Positions 9,760 through 62,344 of a stretch of 64,000 bases of DNA are shown here, piece after piece. The number at the start of each line of letters is the position of its first letter. Within the stretch, counting starts at the first letter, position 1. Under the pieces are notes generated by a model. That model was not told the origin of the DNA, did not search any database, and was given only the letters and a program-made list of their open reading frames with translations. The stretch covers positions 217 through 64,216 of the forward strand of contig CALVXF010000022.1 of NCBI GenBank assembly GCA_944368875.1, read 5' to 3'. Source of the stretch: an uncultured Bacilli bacterium (GTDB taxonomy: Bacteria > Bacillota_I > Bacilli_A > RF39 > UBA660). A program made the translations under genes and the position numbers.

Positions 9760-9761
9760 AA

Positions 9762-11371: not shown

Positions 11372-11510
11372 ATCCTATAAATAATTATACCAAAAAAATA
11401 AGAAATATAATAAAAAAGTATAGAAAAAATAAAAATATGTGTTATAATATACACGTAACAGAACAGTGGGCTTAAAATCCCACTTTTAATTTTAATTGAG
11501 GTGTTGATTT

Positions 11511-22903: not shown

Positions 22904-24076
22904 ATGGATAAATTAATTTTAATTAAATATGGCGAATTGACAACTAAAAAGAAAAACCGCAAAACATTTATCAAAACTTTAAAAAACAATATTCTTAAAT
23001 TAGGAGGCAATAATATTACCGAAATTTGTGACATGTATGATCGCATGTATATCAAAACTAGTAATCCTATTTTGTTAGTTGAACAATTAAAGACCATTTT
23101 TGGAATCCATAGTATAGTTATTTGTCATAAAACGGAAACTGATATAGCAAGCATAAAACAGTTAATTATGAATATACTAAAAGAAAAAGAATTTAAAACA
23201 TTTAAAGTTGAAACCAAGCGTAGTTATAAGCAATTTCCACAAACAAGCATGGAAGTATCACGACATTTAGGTGGTTTTATTCTTAAAAATTTTATATCTA
23301 AAGTCGATGTCCATAATCCTGAATTGATAGTGTTTGTAGAAATTCACAAAGACTATACTTATGTTTATACAGATGAAATAAAAGGCTTAGGAGGATATCC
23401 AGTAGGAATACAAGGAAAAGGGCTTTTAATGTTAAGTGGTGGTATTGATTCACCTGTTTCAGGTTATTTAGCTTTAAAACGTGGGGTGGATTTAGAATGT
23501 CTATATTTTGAATCACCACCTCATACTAGTATAGAGGCTAAAAATAAAGTTTTAAAACTTGCTGATACAATAAATAAATATTCAGGCAATATCAAAGTTC
23601 ACATTGTCCCTTTTACTCGTCTTCAAGAAGAAATATATAAAAATGTTGACCCTAGTTATATCATTACAATTATGCGTCGCATGATGTATAGAATAGCTAC
23701 AATAGTTGCCAAAAAAAATAATTGTAAAGTTATTATTAATGGTGAATCAATAGGTCAAGTAGCAAGTCAAACTTTAACAAGTATGATTGCTATTAATAGT
23801 GTAACCAATTATCCTATAATTAGACCTGTTGCGTGTTTAGATAAGCTAGAAATAATTGACATAGCGAAAAAAATTGGAACGTATGAAACAAGTATTTTGC
23901 CTTTTGAAGATTGTTGTACAATCTTTTTACCAGATCATCCTATTATTAATCCCAATTTAAAACGTTGTGAAGAGATGGAACAAACATTTGATTATGAAAA
24001 ATTAATTGAAGAATGTGTTTCTAATATCGAAACAATTAAAAAATTAGAACCTGATAAATTTAGTGAATTACTATAA
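22904..24076 (+). CDS. thiI: tRNA 4-thiouridine(8) synthase ThiI
   Basis: THUMP domain and PP-loop SGGIDSPV. Preceded by an extended -10 TGGTATAAT at 22873..22881. Confidence 0.9.
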   Translation: MDKLILIKYGELTTKKKNRKTFIKTLKNNILKLGGNNITEICDMYDRMYIKTSNPILLVEQLKTIFGIHSIVICHKTETDIASIKQLIMNILKEKEFKTFKVETKRSYKQFPQTSMEVSRHLGGFILKNFISKVDVHNPELIVFVEIHKDYTYVYTDEIKGLGGYPVGIQGKGLLMLSGGIDSPVSGYLALKRGVDLECLYFESPPHTSIEAKNKVLKLADTINKYSGNIKVHIVPFTRLQEEIYKNVDPSYIITIMRRMMYRIATIVAKKNNCKVIINGESIGQVASQTLTSMIAINSVTNYPIIRPVACLDKLEIIDIAKKIGTYETSILPFEDCCTIFLPDHPIINPNLKRCEEMEQTFDYEKLIEECVSNIETIKKLEPDKFSELL

Positions 24077-24135
24077 TTTTCCAGTATTAATTAAAAACTT
24101 TCGGACATGCTATAAATGTACGGAGGTGAAAACAA

Positions 24136-24335
24136 TGGAAAACAACAAATTCGTTGTAAACGGTGCAAAACAAGCTATCGAACAAATGAAATATGAAATT
24201 GCTAATGAATTAGGAGTTAAAATGGGACCTGATGCTACAAGCAAAGCAAACGGACGTGTTGGTGGTGAAATCACTAAACGTTTAGTTAAAATGGGTGAAC
24301 AAAACTTAGGTGGAACTCATTATCAATCAAAATAA
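24136..24335 (+). CDS. small acid-soluble spore protein, alpha/beta type
   Basis: The [10 protein letters not shown] and GGEITKRLV motifs are diagnostic of alpha/beta SASPs. Own RBS GGAGGTG. Terminator hairpin AGATGG..CCATCT plus T-run at 24318..24347. Confidence 0.88.
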
Positions 24336-24420
24336 AGATGGTTATCCATCTTTTTTTGGTACTAATTACCACTAATAATAATTTTAATTGTGCCAATAAT
24401 ATAAATAAGGTGGTGAGATG

Positions 24421-24610
24421 TATGAATAACAAATTAAACGTTGCTGGATCTAAACAAGTTTTAGATACAATGAAATACGAAATCGCACGTGAACTAGGTG
24501 TTACATTAGGACCAGATACAACAAGTAGAGCTAATGGAACAGTTGGTGGCGAAATGACAAAAAGATTAGTAAATCTTGGTATGCAATCTATAAACGCTAA
24601 AAACTTTTAA
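24421..24610 (+). CDS. small acid-soluble spore protein, alpha/beta type (second tandem copy)
   Basis: [10 protein letters not shown] and [22 protein letters not shown]. Terminator AAGCATCATATGATGCTT plus T-run. Confidence 0.88.
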
Positions 24611-29969: not shown

Positions 29970-32666
29970 ATGAAGAAATTGAAAGTAATTATAAAAAGAC
30001 ATTGGTATTTTCATTTTATGCTTTTAGCTATGTCAACACTTTGCTTGTCACTACATTTTGATAGTGTTAATGCGATGATGGTTTCTAATGGCCAATTAGC
30101 AGGTTCTGGTCTACCAGGAAGCAGCACTAGTACAGAAAAGTCACTTTATACAGCGACATTAAATAAAGGCGAATTTTTAGCTAAAACACCATTTACCTAT
30201 TTCCGTAGTAGTAATATGGCCCATTGGACAATTAACGGGGAAACAGCTTTTTGTATCGATGTTTATATCGATTATAATAAAAACATGAGTTTATATCGTC
30301 ATTCGCTTTATGAAGAATTTACTTTTTTTGAAGCAATTACAGTAAAACGGATTTTAAACTATGTTGACCTTCATAAAAGTGAAGATAACTCTATTTATGC
30401 GATTGCCCAAGCTTTAGTTTGGGGTATTCGAGAAAATGTTGGCGTTGATTTGCTTTTAAAAAGTGAAGCAACGAGGGACTTAGCTTATCAAGCTTATGCA
30501 GCGTATCGTGGCTTTGTACAAAAAAATGGCGAATACCCAGACATGGGGCCTGAAGAAAAAGCATATGTTGATAATGTATTAGCAGGTATGTGTGTTTCAA
30601 GTGCTGCTGGGACTTTCTATGTATATTATTCAGCTTGTGGTAATGAGTCTGATGAATGGCAACGCTATGTTACAAAAGCGCCAGGGACTTTATGTATTGG
30701 AGCTGAATGTGAGATAGATTGTGGTGAAGAAGGAGAAGGATGTAATAATACGCCAACTGTAAGTCTTGGTGGCAAGTGTGAAGGTGGAAGTTTCTTTGAT
30801 GATACTAACAATTGGGAATGTATTCAAGGAGACAGTCAATTTAAAGATACTTCGATTGCTGGTGAAAATAATCCTTATTGTACTTTCTTCTGTCGGGAAA
30901 CAGTTAATTTTAATTTTCCAGCTAGTAATTTCACTTTTTATGGAGGACAATATTTTACGATCGGTTCATCGGTAGCTGGTAATACATGGGGACCTATTTC
31001 CGTTTATGGTATTCGTAATTGCCGTAGTTATTATAAGGAAAATTCTGGTGATACTAATTATATACCAGGTATTGATTGGACACAATTTTTAGCCGATATT
31101 AAAAGCGATAACAATGCTATTAAAGCGGCTTATAATAAATGGAAAACAGCTCAAGGAGAGTTAGAGGCTTTAAAGAAGGCCAAAAAATATGTTACTAGAA
31201 AGGATTGTAATCCTTCTAATAATTTAAAACTAGAGATTGAAGATGAAGATTTAGATAAAGTTGAATGCGAATGCGCTAATGGTGGAACTTATCTTCCTGG
31301 AGCAAATAAATGCTTTGCTATTGTAAATTGGACAATTAGTATGGAAGAACCAGAAAGTTGTAGCTATGAAAAATATAAAGATATTACCTTACTATATGAA
31401 AATAATAAGTGGTATGTCACTAGAGATTCTCTAGAGTACTGGTATCCAACACAATCTAGTACGCAAGTAAATGCTGATGGTAATAAATTTTATCCACGAG
31501 TTTTTTATGAATATAATGCTAATTTGCATACTTATGGTAAGTGTGTAGCTTCTAGTAGTTCTTATAGTATAGATAAAGAAATTAGTAATAAACAAAAAGA
31601 AGTTAATAGTTTGTATAATGCTTATCGTAGCTTAACTGATAAAAGTCAGGCTAAGATTAATAATATTAAGGCTTGCGCGGGATCAACTGCTAAGTATAAT
31701 TTAAATCCTGTTATTACTTATAGATATGATGATTCTGAGTTTTTCAAATCTGGAACTTTAACTTCATCGGGATCAAGTTCTAGTGTTTCAAAGCAGACAA
31801 CGAATAAAGAAGCTGGAGAGATTAGTTATTCTTTATTAACTTGTACCAATGATGGTGGTTGTAAAACAAAAAGTTATACAATTACAGGATTGAAATTAAA
31901 AAATGTTACATCTAATGAGATAACTATTACAAGTCGTTCGACTTATACTTTAGGCAATACAGGGTATCGTTATGCTCTTAAAAGTAGAGGACAAGTTATT
32001 GGCTCAGTCAATGATGAGTTAAAGGGGGCTTATGTTGATTTAGGCGATGATGTCATTCCTTTAAGTTATACTTTGAAGACAGGATATTATAATATTGTTC
32101 TAAATTATTCTAATATTGGACATAATGGATATTTTGATAAATATGTTTCGCAAATAGGTGGTAATACAGAATATGTTTGTCCATTTTATTTAAAGAATGA
32201 TATTTTAGGGTTTGAAGATGACCCAAATGATCCAGATTATTCTAAAACTGGCCCTATTGGTTTAGATATCATTTATCGTCCTATTCAATTGGGAGAACAA
32301 GATGTTGCTTTTCCTAGTATAGATGGTGATGGTAGAAAGCCTGGCTCTAATTGGATTGGGACAACTTCTACTGGGCAAAGCTATGTTGATGCATATATTA
32401 CTTATAATCGAGGAGTTGATGATTATGAAGTTTATGATTTAGAACCCTTATACACGATAGAAATGACGCCAACTGTAATTAAAAAAATTCGAGAATACAA
32501 TAAAAATGTTGGCGATTATAATGATTTTAATTTAACGTGCACAAACGGTAAACAATGTTATAGTTCATTCATTCATTCTGAATTTGACGAATATATAGGT
32601 GGTAGTTGTGGTGATTCAGGAAGTGGTGAATTTAACTCTTGTGTGACTAGTGGAGGTGGCAGTTAG
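29970..32666 (+). CDS. large (898 aa) secreted cysteine-rich protein, candidate adhesin / filament-associated protein
   Basis: N-terminal signal sequence. About 30 Cys in paired patterns (CEIDCGEEGEGC, VECECANGG). No LPXTG motif. Stop overlaps the next gene's GTG start. Confidence 0.55.
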   Translation: MKKLKVIIKRHWYFHFMLLAMSTLCLSLHFDSVNAMMVSNGQLAGSGLPGSSTSTEKSLYTATLNKGEFLAKTPFTYFRSSNMAHWTINGETAFCIDVYIDYNKNMSLYRHSLYEEFTFFEAITVKRILNYVDLHKSEDNSIYAIAQALVWGIRENVGVDLLLKSEATRDLAYQAYAAYRGFVQKNGEYPDMGPEEKAYVDNVLAGMCVSSAAGTFYVYYSACGNESDEWQRYVTKAPGTLCIGAECEIDCGEEGEGCNNTPTVSLGGKCEGGSFFDDTNNWECIQGDSQFKDTSIAGENNPYCTFFCRETVNFNFPASNFTFYGGQYFTIGSSVAGNTWGPISVYGIRNCRSYYKENSGDTNYIPGIDWTQFLADIKSDNNAIKAAYNKWKTAQGELEALKKAKKYVTRKDCNPSNNLKLEIEDEDLDKVECECANGGTYLPGANKCFAIVNWTISMEEPESCSYEKYKDITLLYENNKWYVTRDSLEYWYPTQSSTQVNADGNKFYPRVFYEYNANLHTYGKCVASSSSYSIDKEISNKQKEVNSLYNAYRSLTDKSQAKINNIKACAGSTAKYNLNPVITYRYDDSEFFKSGTLTSSGSSSSVSKQTTNKEAGEISYSLLTCTNDGGCKTKSYTITGLKLKNVTSNEITITSRSTYTLGNTGYRYALKSRGQVIGSVNDELKGAYVDLGDDVIPLSYTLKTGYYNIVLNYSNIGHNGYFDKYVSQIGGNTEYVCPFYLKNDILGFEDDPNDPDYSKTGPIGLDIIYRPIQLGEQDVAFPSIDGDGRKPGSNWIGTTSTGQSYVDAYITYNRGVDDYEVYDLEPLYTIEMTPTVIKKIREYNKNVGDYNDFNLTCTNGKQCYSSFIHSEFDEYIGGSCGDSGSGEFNSCVTSGGGS

Positions 32667-33067
32667 TGAAGGAATCCTTTTGGGGTGTGTTTATTGTAGG
32701 TTTAGGTGTTACAGCAATTGCTTTTATTTATCTTTTTCAAAATATAACTAGTACAGACGAACACAATTATAATATTCTCAAAGAAACAACCGAAGCGGCG
32801 ATGATTGATGCTTTTGATTTAGCTAGTTATCGTTATGATGGAACAATCAGAATTGATAGAGAGAAGTTTGTGGAAAACTTTTATCGTCGTTTTGCTGAAA
32901 ATGCTAGTTTATCTAGAACATATTATATAGATATATATGATGTTAATGAGGAACCACCAAAAGTAAGTATAAAAGTTTCAAGTACTGAAAAATCAAATAT
33001 TACAGATGATGTGATGGAATTTGATATAGTAAATCAATTAGATGCTATATTAGAAGTTCCATATTAG
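32666..33067 (+). CDS. small N-terminally anchored extracytoplasmic protein
   Basis: GTG start overlapping the upstream stop. Single N-terminal TM followed by a domain of about 100 aa. Confidence 0.45.
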   Translation: MKESFWGVFIVGLGVTAIAFIYLFQNITSTDEHNYNILKETTEAAMIDAFDLASYRYDGTIRIDREKFVENFYRRFAENASLSRTYYIDIYDVNEEPPKVSIKVSSTEKSNITDDVMEFDIVNQLDAILEVPY

Positions 33068-33082: not shown

Positions 33083-33901
33083 ATGAATATAGTAACAAGT
33101 ATTACAAGATTTTTAAAAAATAAGAATATTGTCACAATCATGGGGGTTGTTGCGGTTGTGGCTATTTTGTATTTTGGTTATAACTATCAAATAAATCAAC
33201 AAACAAGCCCTATTTCTATTCCGGTTGCAAAAGAAACTATTCAACCGGGGACTTTAATAACTAGTGATATGATAACTTCTATTAGTATTCCTAGAATGGG
33301 AGTTTCTAGTAATGTTATTAGAAGTGCTAGTAGTATTGTTGGTAAATACACCAATTATAATACAGTGATACCAGCAGGATCAATGTTTTATACTGATGTT
33401 GTAATTGATCGCGAAGATTTACCTAATTCTTCTTTTACACAAGTTAAAGAAGGTGATGTCGTTTTTAATTTAAATGTTACGACTGAATCAACTTATGGTA
33501 ATTCTATTTTTCCAGGAGATTACATCGATATTTATATGAAAGCTGAAGATGATTCAGGTCAAATCATGGTAGGTAAGTTAGTTGAAAATATCGAAGTTTT
33601 AGCTTTAAAAGATTCTTCAGGACAAAATGTTTTTGAAGATAGTAGTGAAAGTAGATCACCTGCTTATATGATTTTTGGAGTTTCTTCAGAAATTCATATA
33701 TTACTTCGTAAAGCTCTTTATATGAGTGATTATAGTGTTGAACTTATTCCAGTCCCACATGGTGGTGAAATATTAGAAGAAGGAGAAACGCGTGTTAGTT
33801 CAACATATTTAAAAGAATTTATCAATTCTAAGACAGTTAATCTTCCAGTTGAAGATGACACTACTGTTGAAGAAGACAATTCTAATACAGAAGGAGAATA
33901 A
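33083..33901 (+). CDS. CpaB/RcpC-like (SAF domain) pilus assembly protein
   Basis: N-terminal TM followed by a SAF-like segment IPVAKETIQPGTLITSDMIT..IPR and a beta-rich domain. Sits immediately upstream of the TadA-like ATPase, as in Tad loci. Confidence 0.45.
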   Translation: MNIVTSITRFLKNKNIVTIMGVVAVVAILYFGYNYQINQQTSPISIPVAKETIQPGTLITSDMITSISIPRMGVSSNVIRSASSIVGKYTNYNTVIPAGSMFYTDVVIDREDLPNSSFTQVKEGDVVFNLNVTTESTYGNSIFPGDYIDIYMKAEDDSGQIMVGKLVENIEVLALKDSSGQNVFEDSSESRSPAYMIFGVSSEIHILLRKALYMSDYSVELIPVPHGGEILEEGETRVSSTYLKEFINSKTVNLPVEDDTTVEEDNSNTEGE

Positions 33902-33903
33902 TT

Positions 33904-35142
33904 ATGAGTGATAATATATTCTCACAAATGGATTTTGGATATTTTAAAGAATATTTAAATAATGATGATGTTACAGATATTTCTTATGATAATAATGGAC
34001 AAATACATTTAAAGACTTTATCTCAAGGTATTATAAGGGTAGAAAATCCAAATATAACTAATGCAGTTGTTGAAAAACTTGCATTTCAATGTGCGAATGC
34101 TATGGGGAAATCTTTCAATATGGCTTATCCTATGCTGGATGCTGAGAGTGCTGAATTACGTATGAATTTTATTCATGATTCAATTGCGCGAAATGGTATA
34201 GCCTTGGTTATTCGTAAAACACCTGCTAAAATACGACTTGAAAAAGACAAAATTATTGCTGATAAATATATTACTTTGGGAATTCATGATTTTCTAATCA
34301 AATGTATCGAAGGACATTGTAACATTATTGTATGTGGTGAAACCGGTTCAGGTAAAACAGAATTCGTTAAATATCTAGGTTCAAAAATTAAAGAAAACGA
34401 AAAAATTATAACGATTGAGGATACATTGGAACTCCATCTTGATAAAATATTTCCACATCGTGATATTGTTGCTTTGAAGACTAATAATATTGCTACATAC
34501 TCAGACATTTTAGTGGCTTGTATGCGTCAAAACCCTAAATGGATATTACTTTCCGAAGTGCGTAGTGCTGAAGCTGTCATGGCTGTTCGTAACTCTATTT
34601 CATCAGGGCATTATATTTTATCAACAATCCATGCTGACAAAGCTAGTAGTATTCCAAATCGTATGTATAGTTTGTTGGAAACTAATCAAGATATTGATCA
34701 ATTTCTAAAATCAATCTATCGTTATATTCAATTAGGAATATATATTCGTGGTTACCAAAGTCGAGAAACAGGCAAATTTGTTCGTGAAATAGCTGAAGTT
34801 ACAGAATTTTATGTAACCGAAGATAATGAAGCAAAGTATAATGTCATCTATAAAAAAGATTTATTTGGGAATGTTGTTAACAATGATCCTAGTAAATATT
34901 TGATTGAATATTTATCCGCTCAAGGAGTTCAATTGCCTGATGAAATGGTTGATCGTGCCCAAAATAAAAAAGATTCTGAAATTGGTGTTAGTGCTAATAC
35001 AACAATCGAAAAACCAAATGTTAAAAAAGTTACGCCAGTTGGTCCAACGAATAACCCGATTCCTACGAGTGTTAAAACAACTCAAAATCCAATTGGGGCA
35101 ATGCCCAATACAGCTAATGGAACCGTAAGTTCTAATACATAA
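33904..35142 (+). CDS. TadA/CpaF (VirB11-superfamily) secretion ATPase with P/T-rich C-terminal tail
   Basis: Walker A GETGSGKTE, the IITIEDTLEL motif, Walker B/His-box region RQNPKWILLSEVRSAEA, and HYILSTIHA. Confidence 0.75.
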   Translation: MSDNIFSQMDFGYFKEYLNNDDVTDISYDNNGQIHLKTLSQGIIRVENPNITNAVVEKLAFQCANAMGKSFNMAYPMLDAESAELRMNFIHDSIARNGIALVIRKTPAKIRLEKDKIIADKYITLGIHDFLIKCIEGHCNIIVCGETGSGKTEFVKYLGSKIKENEKIITIEDTLELHLDKIFPHRDIVALKTNNIATYSDILVACMRQNPKWILLSEVRSAEAVMAVRNSISSGHYILSTIHADKASSIPNRMYSLLETNQDIDQFLKSIYRYIQLGIYIRGYQSRETGKFVREIAEVTEFYVTEDNEAKYNVIYKKDLFGNVVNNDPSKYLIEYLSAQGVQLPDEMVDRAQNKKDSEIGVSANTTIEKPNVKKVTPVGPTNNPIPTSVKTTQNPIGAMPNTANGTVSSNT

Positions 35143-35154: not shown

Positions 35155-36057
35155 ATGGAATTACTAATGTTTTTGTTCATCGCTTTTATTATAGTATTTG
35201 TAATTGTTTATCGTTTAAACAACGGGCAAAACGTTTATAAATATATAATCGATACGGGAACTAATATTTATAATAAATATGCACCATATTCTTTTAAATC
35301 AGTTCGTGAAAAAGTAAAAGATTTGGGTCAAGAATACACACCTAGACAATATACAATTCAAATTATTACATTTGCAGCTGGAGCAGCAATAGTATCATAT
35401 TTATATTTCTATAGCATTATTACTTCTGTTATTTATTCTCTTATAGCAATATCTATAATTCCATATTTAACATATTTGCGTTGCAAGAGAATTTATAGTG
35501 AGTTTTTGTTTGAACAAGTTCAGGTTTACACAACTAATGTTATTATGGAATTTGCTACAACTCAAAGTTTCGTTAAAGCTTTAGAAGGTGTATATGAATC
35601 CGGTGTTCTTGAAGATCCAATCAAAACCGATGTTAAAGAGATGATTGATATGGCTTATGCCAATGGGACAATTGATCAATCTTTAGAATATATGAATGCT
35701 AAATATGATTATTATATTGTGCGCAATATGCATCAATTATTTTTACAAATTACTAATGAAGGAACTAGGGATAGCGGTGAGTCTTTGGAAAACATGTCAA
35801 TGGATATTGATATGTTAGTAGAAAATGTTTATCGCGACCGAATGGATAGAGCATCATTCCATAAAAAGTTTTTACAATTTGGTATAGTTTTATATTTGAT
35901 GGTCATGCTTGTTCAATTTCTTTTAGGTGTTGAAACTTATATTGAAATGTTAGATAACATTTTTGTTCAATTATTACTTCATGGTATAGTCATAGTAAAT
36001 ACATATTTCTTGTTGAACGGGGAAAAATATTATAATGAGAATGTAGGTGCTGAATAA
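35155..36057 (+). CDS. TadB-like (T2SSF/GspF-family) inner-membrane platform protein
   Basis: Topology is TM, two TM, cytoplasmic helical domain of about 130 aa, two C-terminal TM. Follows the TadA-like ATPase directly. Confidence 0.5.
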   Translation: MELLMFLFIAFIIVFVIVYRLNNGQNVYKYIIDTGTNIYNKYAPYSFKSVREKVKDLGQEYTPRQYTIQIITFAAGAAIVSYLYFYSIITSVIYSLIAISIIPYLTYLRCKRIYSEFLFEQVQVYTTNVIMEFATTQSFVKALEGVYESGVLEDPIKTDVKEMIDMAYANGTIDQSLEYMNAKYDYYIVRNMHQLFLQITNEGTRDSGESLENMSMDIDMLVENVYRDRMDRASFHKKFLQFGIVLYLMVMLVQFLLGVETYIEMLDNIFVQLLLHGIVIVNTYFLLNGEKYYNENVGAE

Positions 36058-36841
36058 TATGATATTTATTATTATATGTGCTATTATTTTGTTTGTCATG
36101 TTTTATAATAAAATGATAGATCAAAACAAATTTATTCAAGAAACAGAACCATATTTTCGCTTTTTAATGGAAGATGATTATGAATTCTTATTGCATATTA
36201 AGTATGGCGCTGATGTTGATGTCAATAAAATGTTTGGTATTAGAGTAAGAAATGGAATTGTTGTAATTGTAGTTATTATGTTTTATTTCCTTTCTAATTT
36301 AAATTTTATTAGTATATTATTTTCTTTTATCGTAGGATTTATAGTTTTTAAATCATCATATACAAAGTTGAATAGATATTATAAAAACAATTTACACAAT
36401 ATTAATTTAATGTTGCCTTATTATTTAAAAAGTTTGGAAATATTAATTCAACATTACACAGTTCCTGTTGCTTTATCTAAATCAATAGAAACTGCTCCTG
36501 ATATGTTTAAATCAGGTTTGCGTAAATTGTGTGAAAAAATTGAAGCTGGGGATTCTAGCGTTGATCCTTATATGGATTTTGCAAAAGAATACCCTGTTCG
36601 TGATTCGATGCGTATGATGCGTCTTTTATATCGTTTAGGTCTTGGTAGTCAAGAAAATAAACAAGAACAATTAATGATGTTTTCAAGAACTGTTTCAACA
36701 TTGCAAAACAAAAGTCGTGAACAAAAGTATAAAGAGCGTTTAGAAAAAATGGAACAAAAAACAATGATGATGCTTATGTGTACTGGTGGGGGTATTTTGT
36801 TTTTGATGTTGTTGTCAATGATGATGTTAATGAATTTATAA
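36047..36841 (+). CDS. TadC-like (T2SSF-family) platform protein, paralogue of the upstream gene
   Basis: Same TM/cytoplasmic-domain architecture as the preceding gene. Overlaps it by 11 nt. Confidence 0.5.
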   Translation: MLNNMIFIIICAIILFVMFYNKMIDQNKFIQETEPYFRFLMEDDYEFLLHIKYGADVDVNKMFGIRVRNGIVVIVVIMFYFLSNLNFISILFSFIVGFIVFKSSYTKLNRYYKNNLHNINLMLPYYLKSLEILIQHYTVPVALSKSIETAPDMFKSGLRKLCEKIEAGDSSVDPYMDFAKEYPVRDSMRMMRLLYRLGLGSQENKQEQLMMFSRTVSTLQNKSREQKYKERLEKMEQKTMMMLMCTGGGILFLMLLSMMMLMNL

Positions 36842-36842: not shown

Positions 36843-36874
36843 TATTGCTAAAGAAATAAAAAGGTGTTATAATT
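36843..36874 (+). promoter_or_regulatory. sigma-A-type promoter with extended -10 (TTGCTA-17-TGTTATAAT) driving the small pilin-like gene
   Basis: Read directly from the sequence at 36845..36874. Confidence 0.5.
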
Positions 36875-36899
36875 AAGAAAAGATAGGATGGTGAAATAA

Positions 36900-37076
36900 T
36901 GAAAGAAGCTGCTGGAGAAGCAAATTTAACTGTAGTTGCAATTATTTTAATTGCTGTAATTGCTGCCGTTGTTACACCAATTATTAATAATGCTATGCAA
37001 ACTACAAGCGATCGTTCTGACTGCTTGAATAGAGGTTGTAATTGGGATACAAGTTCCAATTCATGTGATTGCTAAT
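36900..37076 (+). CDS. 58-aa Flp/pilin-like peptide with hydrophobic helix and 4-Cys C-terminal tail (not in ORF track)
   Basis: Sequence MKEAAGEANLTVVAIILIAVIAAVVTPIINNAMQTTSDRSDCLNRGCNWDTSSNSCDC. Strong promoter and RBS GGATGGTGA. Position matches flp in tadZABC-flp-tadEF loci. Confidence 0.5.
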
Positions 37077-37106: not shown

Positions 37107-37340
37107 ATGAAAAGTAATAAAAGTATGGGAGAAAAAATATTTACCTGTTTTTTGGTTACTGTCATTATAGCCTTGTTATTCTTTCTAGTACTTTATATTT
37201 TGCAACAAACATGTCTTAATGATTGTTGCAAAGAGGCAGGAGGTATGAGTGTTAAGGATGGTGTGTGTGTTGATGTCAATGGAGACCGCATATCATCTAG
37301 TTCTTCATGCCATGATTCTTGTGAGTTTTGGAGGTGGTAG
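37107..37340 (+). CDS. small TM protein with Cys-rich extracytoplasmic tail
   Basis: Single TM helix followed by CLNDCCKEAGG...CVDV...CHDSCEF. Same architecture as the upstream peptide. Start may be the internal MGEKIF. Confidence 0.4.
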   Translation: MKSNKSMGEKIFTCFLVTVIIALLFFLVLYILQQTCLNDCCKEAGGMSVKDGVCVDVNGDRISSSSSCHDSCEFWRW

Positions 37341-37343: not shown

Positions 37344-37802
37344 ATGAGTCAAAGTGTTGGTAGTGTTGCTTTATATAACATTGTTATAGTTTTTTTAGTC
37401 ATTGTATTTGCTTTTTTAGCCGCTACTATTAGTTACTCAAAGGCTTTTCGCGTTAATAGTCGAATTATTTTTGCTATTGAAAAGTATGAGGGTTATAATC
37501 AACTTTCTGCTGACCAAATTGAAGATGTGTTAGAGACTTTAGGTTATACACAAGATAAAAACTTTACTTGTCCAACACGAACTGAAAATGGTCAAAAATA
37601 TGATCCAATTACAAGAATATATAATAATTATGCTTATTGTATTTATTTGTTTCAAGAAGATGCAAGACACTATACTTATGGTGTTCAAACATATTTATAT
37701 GTTGACTTGCCATTTGTACAAGATGTTTTTAAATTGCCAATATATACTAAAACAGAAAGAATATTTTATTTTCATTCTGATGATGATAAGATTGAACCTT
37801 AA
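37344..37802 (+). CDS. N-terminally anchored pseudopilin-like protein (paralogue A)
   Basis: N-terminal hydrophobic segment followed by YSKAFRV...IEKY...TCPTRT...YCIY motifs shared with the next gene. Confidence 0.45.
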   Translation: MSQSVGSVALYNIVIVFLVIVFAFLAATISYSKAFRVNSRIIFAIEKYEGYNQLSADQIEDVLETLGYTQDKNFTCPTRTENGQKYDPITRIYNNYAYCIYLFQEDARHYTYGVQTYLYVDLPFVQDVFKLPIYTKTERIFYFHSDDDKIEP

Positions 37803-37828: not shown

Positions 37829-38341
37829 ATGAAAGAGTCTATAGCTAATAGTTATATTTTTATGATTATAATTACTTTTATAATTATTATTATGCTTGTA
37901 TTTTTAAGTTCTCTTGCTTATTCAAAAGCTTTTAAAGTTAAAAATAAAATAATTGATTTAATTGAAAAATATGATGATGGTTATGAGCCTAATAAACAAA
38001 CACTTGATGCACAAATAGAAGAAGTATTAAAAGATATAGGCTATCGGATGAGCAACAATCATACTTGTCCAACACGAACATCAAAAAACGGAAGTGCTTT
38101 AACTGCTATTAATACACAAACAAATTATCGTTATTGTATATATAAAGAAGTACAAGGACGAGGTGTGCAATATTATGTTATTGCATATATGTATTTTGAT
38201 ATACCTGTCATCAATGAATATTTAGAATTTCCTTTATCAGGGCAAACTAAAGTGTTCTATGAAACTGTTGATAATCATCATAAATGTAATACTGATTCTG
38301 ATTGTGGTAATTTGAAATGTGTCGATAACAAGTGTATATAG
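37829..38341 (+). CDS. N-terminally anchored pseudopilin-like protein (paralogue B) with knottin-like Cys-rich C-terminus
   Basis: Shares YSKAFKV, IEKY, TCPTRT and YCIY with the upstream gene. C-terminal CNTDSDCGNLKCVDNKC. Confidence 0.45.
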   Translation: MKESIANSYIFMIIITFIIIIMLVFLSSLAYSKAFKVKNKIIDLIEKYDDGYEPNKQTLDAQIEEVLKDIGYRMSNNHTCPTRTSKNGSALTAINTQTNYRYCIYKEVQGRGVQYYVIAYMYFDIPVINEYLEFPLSGQTKVFYETVDNHHKCNTDSDCGNLKCVDNKCI

Positions 38342-38356: not shown

Positions 38357-39346
38357 ATGAATGTTATAATTGCTAATCGCTATGGTGCGATGTTACAATC
38401 ATTGGAAATCGAAGTTATTAAAAGATTAGATGGTGAATTCACAGTTGAAGAGATAATTAATCAGTTTCAAAATTTCTTTTATCAAAGAATGATTTTAGAT
38501 ATCACAGCGATAAAAGATTATAAAGATATCAAGAATTTACAAAAATTATCTATTTCTCTAGATATGGATAAAGTGATATTACTATTAGATGATTCACCAG
38601 ATAGTTCATCTAGTGAATACCTATCCAAACTAATTTCAATGGGTATCTATAATTTTACTAAAAATATTGAGGGGATAGTTTATTTATATAATAATCCTAA
38701 TAGTTATCGTGATGTTGCGCAATATCATCAATTAGATAGTATTAAAGAAGTAGTTGTTGAGAAATTTGGACCTAGTTCTGGAACCAAAATTATTGGTATT
38801 AAAAATGTTAATCAAAGTGCAGGAGCTACGACTTTTACTTATATGATGAAAAAACAATTAAGCAAAAATTATAGTGTTGTCGCAATCGAAGTAGACAAAC
38901 GAGATTTTATGTATTTCCGTGATAAAAACATGGTGTCGACAGCAACTCAAGATTTAGGAAATACTTTGGCTAAATATAATGGTAATGATGTTATTCTTGT
39001 TGACATGAATAATAGTGGTGTTGCTGAAGGAATGTGCCACGAAACTATTTACTTACTTGAACCTTCGACAATTAAATTAAATAAATTAATGTTGAGTAAT
39101 CGTAAGATCTTTAGTGAATTAAAAGAAAAGCATATTGTTTTAAACCAAAGCCTTTTGTCTCCTAAAGATGTATTAGCTTTTGAATACGAAGCGAAGACTA
39201 AAATCTTTTATAATATGCCACCACTTGATGAACGTGAAAAAGACATAGAAGCAATGGATCCTTTTTTAATGAAAATGGGTTTTGAACGTCAATCGAATGG
39301 TGAAAATGAGAAAAAGAAAAATATTTTAGGTTTATTTAACATATAA
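38357..39346 (+). CDS. TadZ/CpaE-like pseudo-ATPase (receiver-like N-domain + MinD/ParA-like domain with lysine-less Walker A)
   Basis: KIIGIKNVNQSAGATTFT aligns to the MinD-type KGGVGKTT P-loop, but K is replaced by A. Followed by a VILVDMNN-type Walker B region. Confidence 0.4.
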   Translation: MNVIIANRYGAMLQSLEIEVIKRLDGEFTVEEIINQFQNFFYQRMILDITAIKDYKDIKNLQKLSISLDMDKVILLLDDSPDSSSSEYLSKLISMGIYNFTKNIEGIVYLYNNPNSYRDVAQYHQLDSIKEVVVEKFGPSSGTKIIGIKNVNQSAGATTFTYMMKKQLSKNYSVVAIEVDKRDFMYFRDKNMVSTATQDLGNTLAKYNGNDVILVDMNNSGVAEGMCHETIYLLEPSTIKLNKLMLSNRKIFSELKEKHIVLNQSLLSPKDVLAFEYEAKTKIFYNMPPLDEREKDIEAMDPFLMKMGFERQSNGENEKKKNILGLFNI

Positions 39347-39404: not shown

Positions 39405-39755
39405 ATGTTTATTTTAGATACTGTTTCTTGTGGAGGAATTACAGGCATTCCAGAAATGTTACCAAACTTAGTTAGCATAGGTTATAATATTATTAAAATA
39501 TTTGTTCCAATTGCTTTGATTTTATTTGGTATGTGGGATTTAGGGAAAGCAGTTATGCAACAAAAAGAAGACGATATTAAGAAAGGACAAAAAACTTTCA
39601 TTCAACGTGTTATAGCAGCTGTAATAGTATTCCTAGTTTTCTCAATTGTTCAATTAGTATTTGGTCTATTAGCTTCAGCTAGTGGCGATGATTCAGAAAA
39701 CATCATGGACTGTGTTAATTGCTTTTTAGATAGTAGTAAATGTAGTGCTGACTAA
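39405..39755 (+). CDS. small two-TM protein with Cys-rich C-terminus; VirB2/TrbC-like pilin candidate
   Basis: Two hydrophobic helices separated by a charged loop. C-terminal CVNCFLDSSKCS. Own strong promoter. Followed by a terminator. Confidence 0.4.
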   Translation: MFILDTVSCGGITGIPEMLPNLVSIGYNIIKIFVPIALILFGMWDLGKAVMQQKEDDIKKGQKTFIQRVIAAVIVFLVFSIVQLVFGLLASASGDDSENIMDCVNCFLDSSKCSAD

Positions 39756-39762
39756 TTATAAA

Positions 39763-39796
39763 AATATAGAATAATATCTTTATTCTATATTTTTTT
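39763..39796 (+). terminator. rho-independent terminator
   Basis: ATAGAATAA..TTATTCTAT hairpin followed by TTTTTTTT. A -10 TATAAT follows at about 39803. Confidence 0.55.
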
Positions 39797-39829
39797 TGTG
39801 CTATAATTATAGTAGTTTATTGCGCTCAT

Positions 39830-41314
39830 TTGAGGAGAGATGTTATGAAAAAAACAAAAATATTAAACTGTTTAATATTTACATTATTTTTTATGTTTTC
39901 CACTATATTCAGTACAATGGAAGCAAAAGCATTAATGAACAAATCTAGTGTTGAAATTGTAGGAGGAATAGTTTATCGTGGTACTCATAATGACGGGACA
40001 AATTATACTATTACTATTAATTCAGCCAAGCGTGAAACTAAAATTCAACAACCTGGATATAATTACATTTTTACTTTTGATGTAACTATAAATAATCCTG
40101 TAAATGATAATTTGACTATAACTTATACCATTCAAAGAAATGATGCAAATAAATTAGCAAATAATTCTAATTCATTGCTGTGGACAGACTATTTTAGATA
40201 TATTGTTATGAATAAGAATGGAGAATATTCTATCACGAGTAGTAAACCAAATTCAGACGATTATCCCCTTATTGCCGAAATATCTAATCAAAGTTCAGTA
40301 ATGAAATTCGAAAACGATTTTATGTATTGCTCTGGTGATTTGGTTAAAGCAGGTGATAAAACCAATAAATTACCATATCAAGTTTGTGTTAAAAGGGTAC
40401 ATGGTGATTATTTCTTAATCAAAAAAGAAAATGGTACTGAAACAGCATTTGATTATCAAAATGCATATTCAGGAAATTGGAATGATGAAGATACATATAA
40501 AGGGAATAGTTATGTTAAGCCAATGCAATTTTATTTCAATCCTGATACTTCTGGGATATTTGACACTGAAGGTTTATATGTTTATTTTTATAAACAACAA
40601 ACAGGATTTAATCCTGATAGCAATTGGCAAGACTATTATGTTTCAGGATTAGATTTAACGGATGAAGAATATCAAGAAAATACAGCCCTTGAATTGGAAG
40701 AAGAGCTTAATACACAATATTTAGATTTAGGTAAATGTTTAATTAATAATGGTATTAATTCTAAATATCAGACGCAATGTGATACTTATTTAACTAATAG
40801 AACACCTATTGCAGGTATGACAGAAGAAGAGTTGGAAAATCTAAATATTTCAAATTATGCTAAATGTGTTTTGGAAAAAGAAAATAGTATTTTTATGGAT
40901 GATATAAATACTTATTGTTCTAGTGAATATCAAAATTTATCAGCTGAAAAAGACAGTTTAAAAGATTATGTTCAAAGCACGGGCAATGAAGAATTAATGA
41001 ATAAGTATGCGATTGAATATGGTTTCGATTTTAATTTTGAGATTACAGATGGTTGTGCTTCTTTAGGAAGTTTAATGGGCATTATCAAAGATATTTATAA
41101 TCTTATTTTTTACATTTTGTGTGCTGTTTTAGCAGTTATTACAATGTTTGATTATGCTAAAGCGGTTGTGGATAATGAAGAATTTAAAAACTTTAAAAAA
41201 GCTCATAAACATTTTGCTGTTAGAATAGCCGTTGTTGCAATTGTATGGCTTTTACCTAGTCTAGTTGAATTTATATTTAATTTAATTGGTTTAGGTGAAT
41301 ATTTCTGTTGGTAA
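39830..41314 (+). CDS. secreted Cys-containing protein with two C-terminal TM helices
   Basis: Signal peptide. Ectodomain of about 400 aa. C-terminal double TM anchor. Confidence 0.5.
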   Translation: MRRDVMKKTKILNCLIFTLFFMFSTIFSTMEAKALMNKSSVEIVGGIVYRGTHNDGTNYTITINSAKRETKIQQPGYNYIFTFDVTINNPVNDNLTITYTIQRNDANKLANNSNSLLWTDYFRYIVMNKNGEYSITSSKPNSDDYPLIAEISNQSSVMKFENDFMYCSGDLVKAGDKTNKLPYQVCVKRVHGDYFLIKKENGTETAFDYQNAYSGNWNDEDTYKGNSYVKPMQFYFNPDTSGIFDTEGLYVYFYKQQTGFNPDSNWQDYYVSGLDLTDEEYQENTALELEEELNTQYLDLGKCLINNGINSKYQTQCDTYLTNRTPIAGMTEEELENLNISNYAKCVLEKENSIFMDDINTYCSSEYQNLSAEKDSLKDYVQSTGNEELMNKYAIEYGFDFNFEITDGCASLGSLMGIIKDIYNLIFYILCAVLAVITMFDYAKAVVDNEEFKNFKKAHKHFAVRIAVVAIVWLLPSLVEFIFNLIGLGEYFCW

Positions 41315-41364
41315 AATTAAAGATGATTTTTAAACTTAACGTAAAATTAAAGGAGGTGGTCTGA

Positions 41365-54378: not shown

Positions 54379-56487
54379 ATGCAAGAAAAAATTTTAGCCA
54401 TTTTAAAAAAAGAACAAAAAGCACTATCTGCTCAAGAAATATATGATTTACTTGAACTAAATAGTGTTGATGATTTAAAAAACCTATTAAAAGAATTGCA
54501 AGTATTAGAAGAAAATTTACAAATATATCGTACTAAAAAAGACAACTATATGTTATTTACAAATAGTCATTTAAAATTAGGTAAAATGATTGCCAATAAA
54601 AAAGGTTTTGGTTTTGTCGATATTGAAGGTGATGAAGATGTTTTTATTGCTCCTTCAAATATTAATGGTGCGATTCATGGTGATCAAGTAGTTGTTGAAA
54701 TCACATCTAAAAAAGGTATGGATTTAGAAGGTCGTATTGTCAGGGTTGTAAATCGCGATTTAAAACAACTAGTTGGGGAATACTATACTAAAGATGGTAT
54801 GGGCTATATTAAATTAGATGATGAAAAAGTTAAACTGTTGGTTTCGATTAAACTTGAAAATAGTTTAGGCGCGATGGATGGCCATAAAGTTTTAGTAAAA
54901 ATCGGCAATAAAATTAAAGATAACAATTATGAAGGAGAAGTTGTACGTATTTTAGGCCATAAAAATGACCCAGGTGTTGATATCTTAAGTATTGTTGCTA
55001 AATATGGAATAAATGATACTTTTAGTGAAAAAGTAATGGATGAAGTAGAAGTCTTACCAAATGAAGTTAGTTTAGAAGAAATAAAAGATCGTAAAGATTT
55101 ACGTGACCATATGATTTTTACAATTGATGGTGATGATACTAAAGATATTGATGATGCGATAGAATTAAATAAATTAGAAAATGGCAATTATCTTTTGGGT
55201 GTGCATATTGCTGATGTAAGTTATTATGTTAAAGAAAATACGGAAATTGATAAAGAAGCGTATGACCGTGGTACAAGTGTTTATCTAGCTGATCGTGTTA
55301 TACCGATGTTGCCACATAAATTATCTAACGGAATATGTTCCTTAAATCCCAATGTTGATCGTCTTTCTGTATCATGTGTTATGGAAATAAATAATAAAGG
55401 AGATATTTTAAAAGCAGAAATTTTTCCTAGTGTTATAAAATCTAGAAAACAGATGACTTATAAAAATGTCAATAGTATTTTAGAACAAAATATTATTCCT
55501 GAAGGATATGAAGAATATGCGGATAAATTAAAAGAAATGCATGCATTAGCGCATATTTTAAGAGAGAACAAAATGCGTCGTGGATATATTGATTTTGATA
55601 TTGATGAATCTAAAATAATTGTTAATGAAGACGGTAAAGCTATTGATGTTGTACTTCGCAATCGTGGTGAAGGTGAAAAATTAATTGAAGATTTCATGAT
55701 TGCGGCCAATGAAGCTGTAGCTACCTACATATATATGATGGATCTACCATTTGTCTATCGTGTTCATGGCAAACCAGATGAAGAGAAAATAACTAATTTT
55801 ATTAAATTTATCGGCATGTTAGGCTATCGTGTTAGTACTAGAATTAATGATATAACTCCTAAAGCAATGCAAAAAATATTAGAGGAATTAAATGATAAAA
55901 AAGAATTTCATATTTTATCTAAGTTATTACTTAGAAGTATGCAAAAAGCTGTCTATGATCCAACAAATATAGGGCATTTTGGGATTGCTAGTAAATGCTA
56001 TACTCATTTTACTTCGCCAATTAGAAGATATCCGGATACTACAGTTCATCGCTTACTTAGAACCTATTTATTTGAAAATAAAATGGGGGTGGATACTATT
56101 CGATATTGGGAACAAAAACTACCTTTTTTAACAGAACATGCTTCCAATAAAGAAAGAGATTCGATTGAATGTGAACGCGAAGTAGATGACATGAAAAAAG
56201 CAGAATATATGATGGACCATATAGGTGATAGATATACTGGAATTATTAGTAGTGTTTTAACATTTGGTTTTTTTGTTGAACTACCAAATTTAGTTGAAGG
56301 TCTTGTTCGCATTGATGATTTACCAGGCAATAGTAGATATATTTATGATGAGACAACTTTCTCAATAAGGAGTAATCAAGATAAACGTGGTTATCGTTTA
56401 GGAGATGAAGTTAATGTTATTGTAAAAGATGCTAATAAAGCAAATAAAACAGTTGATTTTATTATTGATACTAAAGAAGAAAAATAA
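54379..56487 (+). CDS. rnr: ribonuclease R (RNB-family 3'-5' exoribonuclease), copy 1
   Basis: Winged-helix N-terminus, cold-shock domains, RNB catalytic motifs ([29 protein letters not shown]) and C-terminal S1 with a K-rich tail. Confidence 0.85.
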   Translation: MQEKILAILKKEQKALSAQEIYDLLELNSVDDLKNLLKELQVLEENLQIYRTKKDNYMLFTNSHLKLGKMIANKKGFGFVDIEGDEDVFIAPSNINGAIHGDQVVVEITSKKGMDLEGRIVRVVNRDLKQLVGEYYTKDGMGYIKLDDEKVKLLVSIKLENSLGAMDGHKVLVKIGNKIKDNNYEGEVVRILGHKNDPGVDILSIVAKYGINDTFSEKVMDEVEVLPNEVSLEEIKDRKDLRDHMIFTIDGDDTKDIDDAIELNKLENGNYLLGVHIADVSYYVKENTEIDKEAYDRGTSVYLADRVIPMLPHKLSNGICSLNPNVDRLSVSCVMEINNKGDILKAEIFPSVIKSRKQMTYKNVNSILEQNIIPEGYEEYADKLKEMHALAHILRENKMRRGYIDFDIDESKIIVNEDGKAIDVVLRNRGEGEKLIEDFMIAANEAVATYIYMMDLPFVYRVHGKPDEEKITNFIKFIGMLGYRVSTRINDITPKAMQKILEELNDKKEFHILSKLLLRSMQKAVYDPTNIGHFGIASKCYTHFTSPIRRYPDTTVHRLLRTYLFENKMGVDTIRYWEQKLPFLTEHASNKERDSIECEREVDDMKKAEYMMDHIGDRYTGIISSVLTFGFFVELPNLVEGLVRIDDLPGNSRYIYDETTFSIRSNQDKRGYRLGDEVNVIVKDANKANKTVDFIIDTKEEK

Positions 56488-61089: not shown

Positions 61090-61112
61090 AAAGAGCATTT
61101 GCTCTTTATTTT
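61090..61112. terminator. bidirectional terminator between the LtaS-family gene and the convergent M23 peptidase gene
   Basis: AAAGAGCA..TGCTCTTT hairpin flanked by A/T runs. Confidence 0.55.
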
Positions 61113-61894: not shown

Positions 61895-62285
61895 CATCAC
61901 CTCCATTATCTTTTTTAAATTTTTGAAGTAGTTCTATTAGAACAGTAGGTATTTTTATTCCCATTTCTTTCCAGTTTTGTAAAATATTTAAAACATGATT
62001 AAATACAAACAAATAGATAACAACACCTCTTACCATTCCATTACTATTCATAAATTTATCTAGCATGAAAGAAATAGACACAATGATTAAATATCCCAAT
62101 TTAACAATAATTACTTTAACACCATCCATTAGATTAAATTGTTTCTGATATATTGCTTTGGCAACTTTAGTTATAAGATCTAAAAGCATAACCATTAATA
62201 ACATTTGTAAAGCATTATCTAAACCACCTAAATAGTAGATAACACTAGTAATAAAAGAACATAGTATAAAAACTACAATACTCAT
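61863..62285 (-). CDS. phage-type holin (LL-H/toxin-secretion holin family-like)
   Basis: Three TM helices. The MLLMVMLLDLITKV motif is typical of the holin_4 family. Start at MSIVVF after an AGGAGG RBS. Overlaps the downstream hydrolase gene. Confidence 0.55.
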   Translation of the reverse strand: MSIVVFILCSFITSVIYYLGGLDNALQMLLMVMLLDLITKVAKAIYQKQFNLMDGVKVIIVKLGYLIIVSISFMLDKFMNSNGMVRGVVIYLFVFNHVLNILQNWKEMGIKIPTVLIELLQKFKKDNGGDDDEQNNGENL

Positions 62286-62344
62286 AATGCCTCCTTTCAC
62301 TTTATTATATGGAGGTATAAAAAAAGATTATGTGCCGCCATAAT

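Follow-up and report, generated by a model that had tools for sequence, protein, structure and literature searches.

Flp/Tad pili, as described in Caulobacter (CpaF/PilA), Aggregatibacter (flp-tad) and Bifidobacterium breve (tadZABC-flp-tadEF), are built from a subunit of ~50–90 amino acids (aa), in which a leader ending in Gly is followed by a hydrophobic helix, and their loci encode a single CpaF-type ATPase, two polytopic TadB/C-like proteins and CpaB. Type IV pilus genes coupled to a conjugative type IV secretion system (T4SS) are known from the thin pilus of R64 (IncI1) and from the PAPI-1 pilus, which are thought to gather cells or to be essential for transfer (PMC12857230). Reviews of T4SSs give type IV pilus-T4SS hybrids for these two only and describe Gram-positive systems as lacking pilins and using adhesins (PMC12857230, PMC12102498). 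Here we describe a 64,000-nucleotide stretch of contig CALVXF010000022.1 (assembly GCA_944368875.1), hereafter the window, from an uncultured Bacilli bacterium, in which a 58-aa open reading frame (ORF) lies in a Tad-like module. We consider it fairly probable that this ORF encodes the major subunit, an Flp analogue, of a divergent Tad/type IVc-like pilus or pseudopilus in a chromosomal conjugation-type T4SS cluster, that a DUF5411 protein and proteins of 152 and 170 aa are its minor subunits, and that the filament is functionally coupled to the monoderm T4SS.

The window shares with Flp/Tad loci the small subunit gene, the single ATPase, the two polytopic proteins and CpaB, and carries two pseudopilin-like genes in the TadE/F position. 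It differs from them in several respects: the G/XXXXEY processing motif is missing, the leader is invariant, non-basic and six residues long, whereas that of Flp is usually longer and basic, the tail is putatively disulfide-stapled, no match with Pfam Flp_Fap, TadE or T2SSF is present, no tadV gene is linked, an extra pilin-like protein (DUF5411) is encoded and the module sits inside a T4SS cluster. The R64 and PAPI-1 pili belong to type IVb, with PilS/PilV-type pilins of ~150–450 aa, a dedicated PilU peptidase and diderm hosts, whereas the system of the window is Tad-like and monoderm, with a putative subunit of ~52 aa.

Other systems of uncultured bacteria are also comparable. The TANB77 cluster of gut Clostridia, recognised mainly by structure and topology and compared here by its published description, likewise encodes divergent Tad-like CpaB, TadZ/CpaE, TadA and TadB/C, followed by pilin-like proteins with an N-terminal transmembrane (TM) helix, and it too is kept throughout an uncultured gut Firmicute lineage (PMC11680825); unlike the window, it has a fused TadC-TadB, a 640-aa ATPase and pilin-like proteins of 143–621 aa, with no Flp-sized peptide and no adjacent T4SS. 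The T4SS of Patescibacteria is, as in the window, monoderm-type and chromosomal, found in uncultured hosts with reduced genomes, usually without a relaxase and with pilin-like genes alongside, but it has arrays of VirB2-like pilins, its hosts encode a type IV pilus separately and they belong to another phylum (PMC12102498). An operon of CpaF, GspF and DUF5411 genes in gut Clostridia was reported as an uncharacterised secretion-related system by a study based on natural language processing (PMC9523054). A Tad module within a Gram-positive-type T4SS has not been described in the literature as such a combination, and its small subunit would work like an Flp pilin, yet it fails the Flp motif and profile tests.

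A conserved and separately promoted small gene

The 58-aa ORF is a real, widely conserved and separately promoted gene. Its product (MKEAAGEANLTVVAIILIAVIAAVVTPIINNAMQTTSDRSDCLNRGCNWDTSSNSCDC, by translation) starts with MKEAAGEANLTVV and ends with CDC, and consists of a six-residue leader (MKEAAG), a hydrophobic helix and a tail with four Cys at positions 42, 47, 56 and 58. Glu occupies position +1, right after Gly6. Only one hydrophobic segment is present, the most hydrophobic 19-aa stretch of the peptide being residues 11–29.

A previous analysis of the letters of the window, made with no database search (hereafter the sequence-only reading), had assigned to this ORF an extended −10 promoter (TTGCTA-17-TGtTATAAT) and a good ribosome-binding site (RBS), and promoter, RBS and ORF were all found at the positions listed in Table 1. 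In DNA of 29% GC the promoter match alone means little, because promoter-like sites within 8 kb were as frequent (51) as expected from shuffled sequences (55). It becomes significant since both signals are kept across related loci: out of 80 distinct loci examined, at least 67 have a TGnTAnAAT box 34–44 nt 5′ of the ATG, TGTTATACT variants of the extended −10 were found in further loci of the same set, and all 80 have an RBS of the AGGTGGTGA type.

Homologues of the peptide numbered 766 at E ≤ 0.01 (clusters at 90% identity), and 355 clusters were obtained at 50% identity. When species-representative genomes were scanned with a pattern, relatives turned up in 258 species, all the carriers being uncultured metagenome-assembled genomes labelled as Bacilli, Bacillales, Mollicutes, Tenericutes or Mycoplasmatota, a few of them evidently mislabelled by submitters, and two being closed chromosomes of ~1.52 Mb. 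Over the first 27 codons, the minor-allele fractions at codon positions 1, 2 and 3 were 0.065, 0.048 and 0.346, respectively, and this 5–7-fold excess of variation at the third position indicates translation under purifying selection. The gene had been called unannotated, which is correct only relative to the 60-aa threshold of an ORF track; exactly the same protein has already been called, without a name, in the NCBI, ENA and Logan gene sets.

Conservation pattern of the peptide family

Within the family, whose members are mostly 50–89 aa long, the first 27 residues (MKEA[A/S/T]GEANLTV[V/I]AIILI…TP) are essentially invariant. Beyond about residue 30 the tail varies in composition and length, with only C42, G46, W49 and C56 conserved. 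The number of Cys is even (2, 4 or 6) in 317 of 324 tails, which points to disulfides and hence to an extracytoplasmic tail. Type IV pilins are classically conserved in this way, with an invariant N-terminal helix and a variable C-terminus stapled by disulfides. The alternative of a Cys-knot peptide, raised earlier for the same ORF, found no support, since family members have 2, 4 or 6 Cys with only two invariant, as fits a simple disulfide-stapled tail.

The peptide has the size and topology of Flp subunits (about 50–90 aa, one N-terminal hydrophobic helix) and the layout of class III-type prepilins, i.e., a short leader, a small residue at −1 and then a hydrophobic stretch (MKEAAG/EANLTVVAIILIAVIAAVVTP, where the slash marks the putative cleavage site). 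The archaeal FlaFind-type signal was not found, residue −2 being Ala, Ser or Thr instead of Lys or Arg, with the Gly at −1 in place.

Other assignments of the peptide were rejected. It does not fit the VirB2/TrbC type of T4SS pilin, having a single hydrophobic segment, no hairpin and no match with Pfam TrbC or T4SS_pilin. Pfam matches with LrgB and Trefoil were sub-threshold, spanned the TM helix and were considered spurious, as was a match of one homologue with the defensin-like family PF25052 (AtDEF-like; 25.1 bits for a cutoff of 25), which also spanned the TM helix and was obtained neither with the window peptide nor with five other homologues.

A leader shared with three larger proteins

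A leader of the form M-[KR]-E-[AS]-x-(W)-G, placed before ~20 hydrophobic residues, is common to four families of the locus, namely the 58-aa peptide, the 152-aa protein, its 170-aa paralogue and the DUF5411 protein (Table 1), and none of the other ORF families represented by the 2345 ORFs of related loci has it. The three larger proteins carry Tyr, Phe or Gly at +5 and no Glu. Judging from these leaders, the occurrence of one and the same G/A-ending signal on one small and several larger proteins looks like a set of major and minor prepilins. The structural model of a neighbour of the 58-aa peptide was pilin-like in shape, and a Foldseek search of the 152-aa model against the PDB returned no significant match.

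A second small peptide, of 77 aa, is encoded just downstream of the 58-aa gene. No blastp counterpart was found in 86 related loci, and its cluster has 5 members. It aligns in register, though weakly, with the 58-aa family profile (hhalign probability 32%, E = 5e-4), and it may be a lineage-specific, divergent pilin copy.

Tad-like machinery genes

As the sequence-only reading had noticed, the 58-aa gene lies where flp is found in tad loci, i.e., after the ATPase and two polytopic genes and before two pilin-like paralogues. Homologous small ORFs beside TadA-like ATPases, suggested there as something to look for in related genomes, were found with synteny kept.

Profile comparison of the ATPase with the PDB gave matches over residues 5–300 with FlaI (1e-17) and with afGspE and CpaF (3e-16), and with VirB11 over the P-loop core only. 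Among NCBIfam models, the scores were 119 bits for VirB11, 96 for TrbB, 93 for the "TadA family conjugal transfer-associated ATPase" and 88 for FlaI, all under the respective cutoffs. This ambiguity between CpaF and VirB11 had previously been missed.

The 300-aa family matched a profile of three Bacillus plasmid proteins (hhalign 97.0%, E = 1e-10, 230 columns), which are mutually related at E = 1e-30 to 1e-57. One of these three is annotated as T2SSF by PGAP, with T2SSF as its sole Pfam candidate (E = 1.8e-4; 21.9 bits vs. a cutoff of 25.2), and another shows T2SSF at E = 0.009. The 264-aa family matched the Bacillus genes located 3′ of the T2SSF genes (hhalign 96.1%). No paralogy between the 300-aa and 264-aa families emerged (hhalign 11%), neither family matched E. 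coli HofC by hhalign, and the homologue search with the 300-aa protein retrieved only close relatives (at least 74% identity) without Pfam labels. The 329-aa protein in the TadZ position gave no Pfam or PDB match, and its similarity to AAA_31 TadZ-like proteins was not significant (hhalign 5%).

Related modules on Gram-positive plasmids

Homologous gene architectures were found on B. thuringiensis pBMB53, on B. anthracis pXO1, where cpaB is annotated by NCBI, on a plasmid of B. cereus FDAARGOS_802, with genes for RcpC/CpaB, AAA_31, an ATPase, T2SSF and DUF4320, and on conjugative plasmids of Paraclostridium and E. faecium (p32). The published gene table of pAW63/pXO2 shows a like pattern, with CDSs of 278, 250, 121, 84 and 100 aa after a "VirB11" coding sequence, CDS 22 (PMC1196294). 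Searched by tblastn, the ATPase was detected on 946 plasmids, including 538 of Bacillus, 45 of Listeria and 31 of Enterococcus, nearly half of them typed as conjugative.

The plasmid modules resemble the window in the succession of a giant surface protein, DUF5411, CpaB, in some cases an AAA_31 ATPase, the T2SSE ATPase, a polytopic pair, small single-TM ORFs and further small TM proteins, adjoining Tcp/VirB4/VirD4 genes. They differ from it in their small ORFs, which have long Flp-like leaders (…NESG/MHNLFV, …SENG/MLIALAV) or start with MLDQNTDR… and have no Cys tail, and in carrying relaxases, none of which was found in the window cluster. Immediately 3′ of their TadC-like gene, the Bacillus modules have tandem ORFs, in the exact position of the 58-aa peptide. 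The leaders of those of the B. cereus group are of Flp type (…KKWLLNEKSQVTNESG/MHNLFVIMLIIG and …KNWLKNEDSQLSSENG/MLIALAVIIVLV), and they too are without Glu5/Tyr6. What the 58-aa family has in common with these Flp-like ORFs is position, size, topology and a short xxNLxV after the Gly only. No prepilin peptidase was found in the Bacillus, Paraclostridium and E. faecium plasmid loci.

Some features of single plasmids were also noted. In pXO1 (9038–9950 and 9950–10432 of the retrieved stretch), the TadC-like gene is missing from the gene table and its translation appears split over two frames, so that it is probably a frameshifted pseudogene. After it come two Flp-like ORFs in tandem (67 and 68 aa), almost identical to each other and annotated only as hypothetical. 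Single-TM peptides of 47–50 aa, starting with MLDQNTDR(A)SW…, are encoded in the CpaF/VirB11 modules of the Paraclostridium plasmid, in tandem (11235–11638 of the stretch retrieved), and of E. faecium p32 (5978–6130 of its stretch); this unnamed family could be a candidate for a fibre subunit.

The T4SS cluster and its chromosomal setting

The 58-aa gene is part of a co-directional block running from ~27.6 to 52.2 kb, which also holds a conjugation-type T4SS (Table 1). The sequence-only reading had overlooked this context, and the module is not a stand-alone tad locus. The gene order from DUF5411 to VirB4 was unchanged in every long related locus. Over 86 loci, identity was 78% for VirB4, 74% for the ATPase, 74% and 72% for the 300-aa and 264-aa proteins and 63% for the 58-aa peptide, and lower for the presumably exposed proteins (~40% for the 152/170-aa proteins and ~33% for the large ones; predicted exposed, 30–45%).

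The three genes upstream of DUF5411 are conserved in 54–63 loci at ~33% identity and are probably surface or adhesin components of the same cluster. In particular, the gene directly 5′ of DUF5411 is always that of the 898-aa protein. On the plasmids, this protein has as counterparts surface proteins of the thioester, SpaA-like or β-propeller kind; it is probably the adhesin of the system. The 116-aa protein may have a VirB2-like role, as suggested by its topology and by its position, where the E. faecium plasmid has an annotated TrbC/VirB2; hhalign of its family with that E. faecium protein was not significant (2%).

The block (27424–52238) begins right after tRNA-Leu(CAA) and has the same GC content as its flanks, which contain housekeeping genes, with ScpA/B and tRNA-Leu to the left and VTT, RmuC, a pair of RNase R genes and SmpB to the right. 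No relaxase, integrase or att-type direct repeat of the tRNA-Leu end was found in the block, which is therefore not called an integrative and conjugative element; it is a resident chromosomal system or an old immobilised element. A DNA search of the 6.8-kb module against plasmids gave no match.

Table 1. Features of the window around the 58-aa ORF, in order of position (−1 denotes the residue before the putative cleavage site, marked by a slash).
Feature	Position	Strand	Evidence and remarks
540-aa multi-TM protein	27628	+	upstream surface/membrane gene
224-aa protein	29283	+	upstream surface/membrane gene
898-aa secreted giant, rich in Cys, Tyr, Trp	29970–32666	+	no Pfam match; relative in another locus with DUF8193
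DUF5411 protein, 133 aa, candidate minor pilin	32666..33067	+	Pfam PF17424 E = 3e-53; MKESFWG/VFVVG then TM helix; −1: G 46, A 17, S 2
CpaB/RcpC-like pilus assembly protein, SAF + RcpC domains	33083..33901	+	Pfam RcpC 30.2 bits (cutoff 28.8); TIGR03177 cpaB E = 2e-11, under its cutoff
T2SSE-superfamily hexameric ATPase, TadA position	33904..35142	+	Pfam T2SSE E = 2e-27
300-aa polytopic protein, putative diverged T2SSF/TadB-like platform	35155..36057	+	hhalign to Bacillus plasmid profile
264-aa polytopic protein, TadC position	36047..36841	+	hhalign to Bacillus plasmid counterparts
Sigma-70-type promoter, extended −10, dedicated to the 58-aa gene	36845..36873	+	TTGCTA-17-TGtTATAAT, 10/12 matches, TG present; −35 TTGCTA 36845–36850; 17-nt spacer with TGt at its end; −10 TATAAT 36868–36873
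RBS GGATGGTGA	36886..36894	+	family consensus AGGTGGTGA
58-aa ORF, candidate major pilin gene	36899..37075	+	ATG at 36899, stop at 37075
58-aa family leader			consensus MKEAAG/EANLT; −1: G 81/83, S 2/83; +1: E 100%; +5: T 83/83; +6: V
77-aa second small peptide, own RBS	37107..37340	+	MKSNKSMG/EKIFTCFLVTVIIALLFF…CCKEAGG…C; between 58-aa and 152-aa genes
152-aa protein, candidate minor pilin	37344..37802	+	consensus leader MRESIG/SVFLY; −1: G 77, S 1
170-aa paralogue of the 152-aa protein	37829..38341	+	consensus MKEAIG/NAFIF, MKESIA in window; −1: G 37, A 21, S 10
329-aa conserved protein, TadZ position	38357..39346	+	82 loci, median identity 61%; known by position
116-aa two-TM protein, VirB2-like position	39405..39755	+	two hydrophobic helices, conserved charged loop (…GMLDLGKAVMAQKEDEIKKGQ…), Cys-containing tail
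494-aa protein	within T4SS set 39405..50535	+	synteny
TrbL/VirB6	41365	+	Pfam
109-aa protein	within T4SS set 39405..50535	+	synteny
TraC-like protein	43486	+	Pfam
VirB4-like ATPase	44058	+	Pfam
CHAP hydrolase	45862	+	Pfam
219-aa lipoprotein	within T4SS set 39405..50535	+	synteny
VirD4/TraG coupling protein	48253	+	Pfam

A proposed filament and the evidence for and against it

The pilin-like interpretation of the ORF thus has substantial support from conservation, leaders, flanking genes and promoter, and it can be translated into the following model. Its own strong extended −10 promoter, the conservation of which was observed, would provide the subunit in excess over the products of the machinery genes. 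The prepilin would insert with its N-terminus inside and its C-terminus outside, leaving the Cys tail outside the cell and disulfide-bonded, as the even Cys counts suggest. A prepilin-type peptidase, with its gene at another place in the genome, would then cut off the MKEAxG leader behind Gly6, and the same leader would mark the DUF5411, 152-aa and 170-aa proteins as co-processed minor pilins. By analogy with Tad pili, the ATPase, the TadB/TadC-like pair and CpaB would extract the subunits, which would polymerise via the invariant helix EANLTVVAIILIGVIAAVVTP, with the variable tail decorating the fibre surface. Gene linkage further suggests that the pilus, the adjacent T4SS and the large surface proteins could together make or stabilise cell-cell contact, as the R64 and PAPI-1 pili do. 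That the leader is cut off, that a filament forms and that it cooperates with the T4SS is what we infer from sequence.

Several results weigh against a pilus subunit. The peptide has no sequence match with any pilin family in NCBIfam, Pfam or the PDB, and Flp_Fap (PF04964) in particular was not matched by the window peptide at E ≤ 0.1, nor by six homologues at E ≤ 1. Glu5/Tyr6 of the G/XXXXEY motif are absent across the family, which has Thr at +5 in all members, and the mismatch described in the sequence-only reading, with Glu at +1, extends to all of them. The leader itself, with six residues, a net charge of about zero and an invariant sequence, is atypical for prepilins. Similarity of the 58-aa family to the Bacillus Flp-like ORFs was not significant (hhalign 15.7%). 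As for the machinery, "CpaF/VirB11 family" is the honest label for the ATPase, which NCBIfam scores do not separate from VirB11/TrbB; the 300-aa and 264-aa proteins gave no direct Pfam or PDB match in profile searches; the T2SSF homology suggested for the 300-aa protein is a transitive chain, whose anchor falls below the Pfam cutoff; and the AlphaFold2 model of that protein was unusable (pLDDT 55, pTM 0.25). The literature labels the plasmid ATPase as VirB11 and discusses no pilus (PMC1196294, PMC9673590). Finally, the lack of a TadV-like enzyme was borne out: no Peptidase_A24 match was found in the 64-kb window (all ORFs of at least 90 aa against Pfam) and no GxGDxK motif in any frame, and among related loci no A24 peptidase turned up, either in their gene lists or in a motif search that covered 1.4 Mb.

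Some of these features have precedents. E5 is also missing in archaeal pilins and in some minor pilins. In Bifidobacterium breve, tadV is not linked to the tad locus, and in Firmicutes ComC could serve as prepilin peptidase. The missing linked peptidase is the main gap of the pilus interpretation, although an unlinked peptidase has precedent.

Alternative explanations

Among other explanations, the one that survives best, although we regard it as unlikely, is that the peptide is a bitopic membrane protein that does not polymerise and acts as a structural or regulatory subunit, in the monoderm T4SS or in its VirB11-like ATPase complex, such as a small anchor or a stator-like component, the "leader" being an uncleaved cytoplasmic docking N-terminus. 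The best NCBIfam score of the ATPase is indeed that for VirB11 (119 bits), and the plasmid homologues are named VirB11 (PMC1196294, PMC9673590). A T4SS cluster with no linked peptidase, and a peptide with no E5, would also be accounted for, and the invariance of MKEAxG is what is expected of a part of the mature protein. The strictly small residue at −1 in four families, on the other hand, is needed by a cleavage site and not by a docking motif. CpaB/RcpC and T2SSF-like partners are present in the locus, and VirB11-containing T4SSs are not known to include them. The separate strong promoter suggests a stoichiometric excess, typical of fibre subunits, and the pilin-like model of the neighbour and the Flp-type leaders at the same spot in the Bacillus modules also speak for a filament rather than an anchor.

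That the peptide is instead the subunit of a short pseudopilus or piston (T2SS/Com-like), crossing the wall and opening or scaffolding the T4SS channel, or moving DNA in or out, seems rather improbable to us. The pilin evidence applies equally to it, every locus has the module set firmly within the T4SS cluster, the host is a walled monoderm (CHAP hydrolase, small acid-soluble spore proteins (SASPs), EzrA) and, with no relaxase or integrase found, the function may not be classical conjugation. The sequence does not tell a short fibre from a long one, but the fast-evolving tail suggests exposure to the environment, immune system or phages, which is more typical of long fibres.

A secreted or tethered Cys-rich effector (bacteriocin, pheromone, defensin-like peptide or exclusion factor), under common control with the transfer genes and exported by means of the hydrophobic stretch, is very improbable. 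One homologue at the PF25052 threshold, the variable, Cys-rich tail and the strong independent promoter would agree with it, but it is the hydrophobic N-terminus that is most conserved, and not the Cys tail, the opposite of what a signal peptide followed by an active peptide would show. Moreover, neither a signal-peptidase I site nor a double-glycine leader is present, the window peptide itself has no defensin match, the same leader is carried by three larger structural proteins and the place of the gene within the machinery operon does not change.

That the ORF arose by chance, or is non-coding spacer, is conceivable for 58 aa in AT-rich DNA, given that shuffled sequences contain promoter-like sites just as often. 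This is already refuted for practical purposes by the 766 homologues and the codon-position signal, which contradict the idea that homologous loci are non-coding, by the conserved RBS and synteny, and by the occurrence in 258 species.

A possible new class of subunits and its implications

Beyond the pilus interpretation of this locus, we tentatively propose a broader idea, which is possible though it falls short of being probable. The 58-aa peptide would found a new class of type IV-filament subunits, with an invariant MKEAxG/EANLTVV, no Glu5 and a disulfide-stapled variable tail, built by a Tad-derived motor that is integral to, and co-evolving with, the monoderm T4SS. On this proposal, an unlinked or non-A24 peptidase would process the leader, and the relaxase-less chromosomal version of the uncultured, ~1.5-Mb Bacilli would have been recruited to a function shared by the whole lineage, such as cell-cell attachment, DNA uptake or effector delivery. 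Given the homologous modules on plasmids of the pXO1, pXO2/pAW63, Enterococcus and Clostridia types, many Gram-positive conjugation machines would then make pili or pseudopili of a type IV-like kind, against the textbook view of Gram-positive conjugation as relying only on adhesins.

Uncultured Firmicutes of guts and digesters share the cluster across at least 258 species, with one candidate major and three co-signalled candidate minor subunits. Homologous modules, so far described as "VirB11 plus hypothetical proteins", are present on medically and industrially important plasmids (the pXO1, pXO2 and pAW63 families, Enterococcus, Listeria). If the 58-aa peptide is a fibre subunit, it would make it possible to test how Gram-positive donors locate and retain their recipients, and it would be an abundant, fast-evolving surface antigen of a common uncultured gut lineage. 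It would also provide a new pilin signature for annotation, since the family is unnamed and often below ORF-calling thresholds.

Other observations on the window and its host

Two tandem α/β-type SASP genes (24063–24335 and 24338–24610, + strand; Pfam SASP E = 6e-19 and 2e-17) and EzrA (21085) are encoded upstream of the block, and the host is probably a spore-forming, walled Firmicute, though relatives were deposited as Mollicutes, Tenericutes or Mycoplasmatota. In the closed chromosomes, the locus lies at 70.5–90.7 kb (OZ007022.1) and 98.5–118.7 kb (OZ007038.1), which puts it within ~70–120 kb of coordinate 1 in both. Should that coordinate be close to the origin, the arrangement would recall the T4SS of Patescibacteria, for which an origin-proximal placement has been noted.

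Downstream of the block, two adjacent full-length paralogues of the RNase R/RNB family (702 and 717 aa; 54379–56487 and 56562–58715, + strand) lie directly 5′ of smpB. At 61106–62300, on the − strand, a phage-type holin (Phage_holin_4_1) precedes an M23 peptidase that has a LysM domain, in a chromosomal context with no other phage genes in view.

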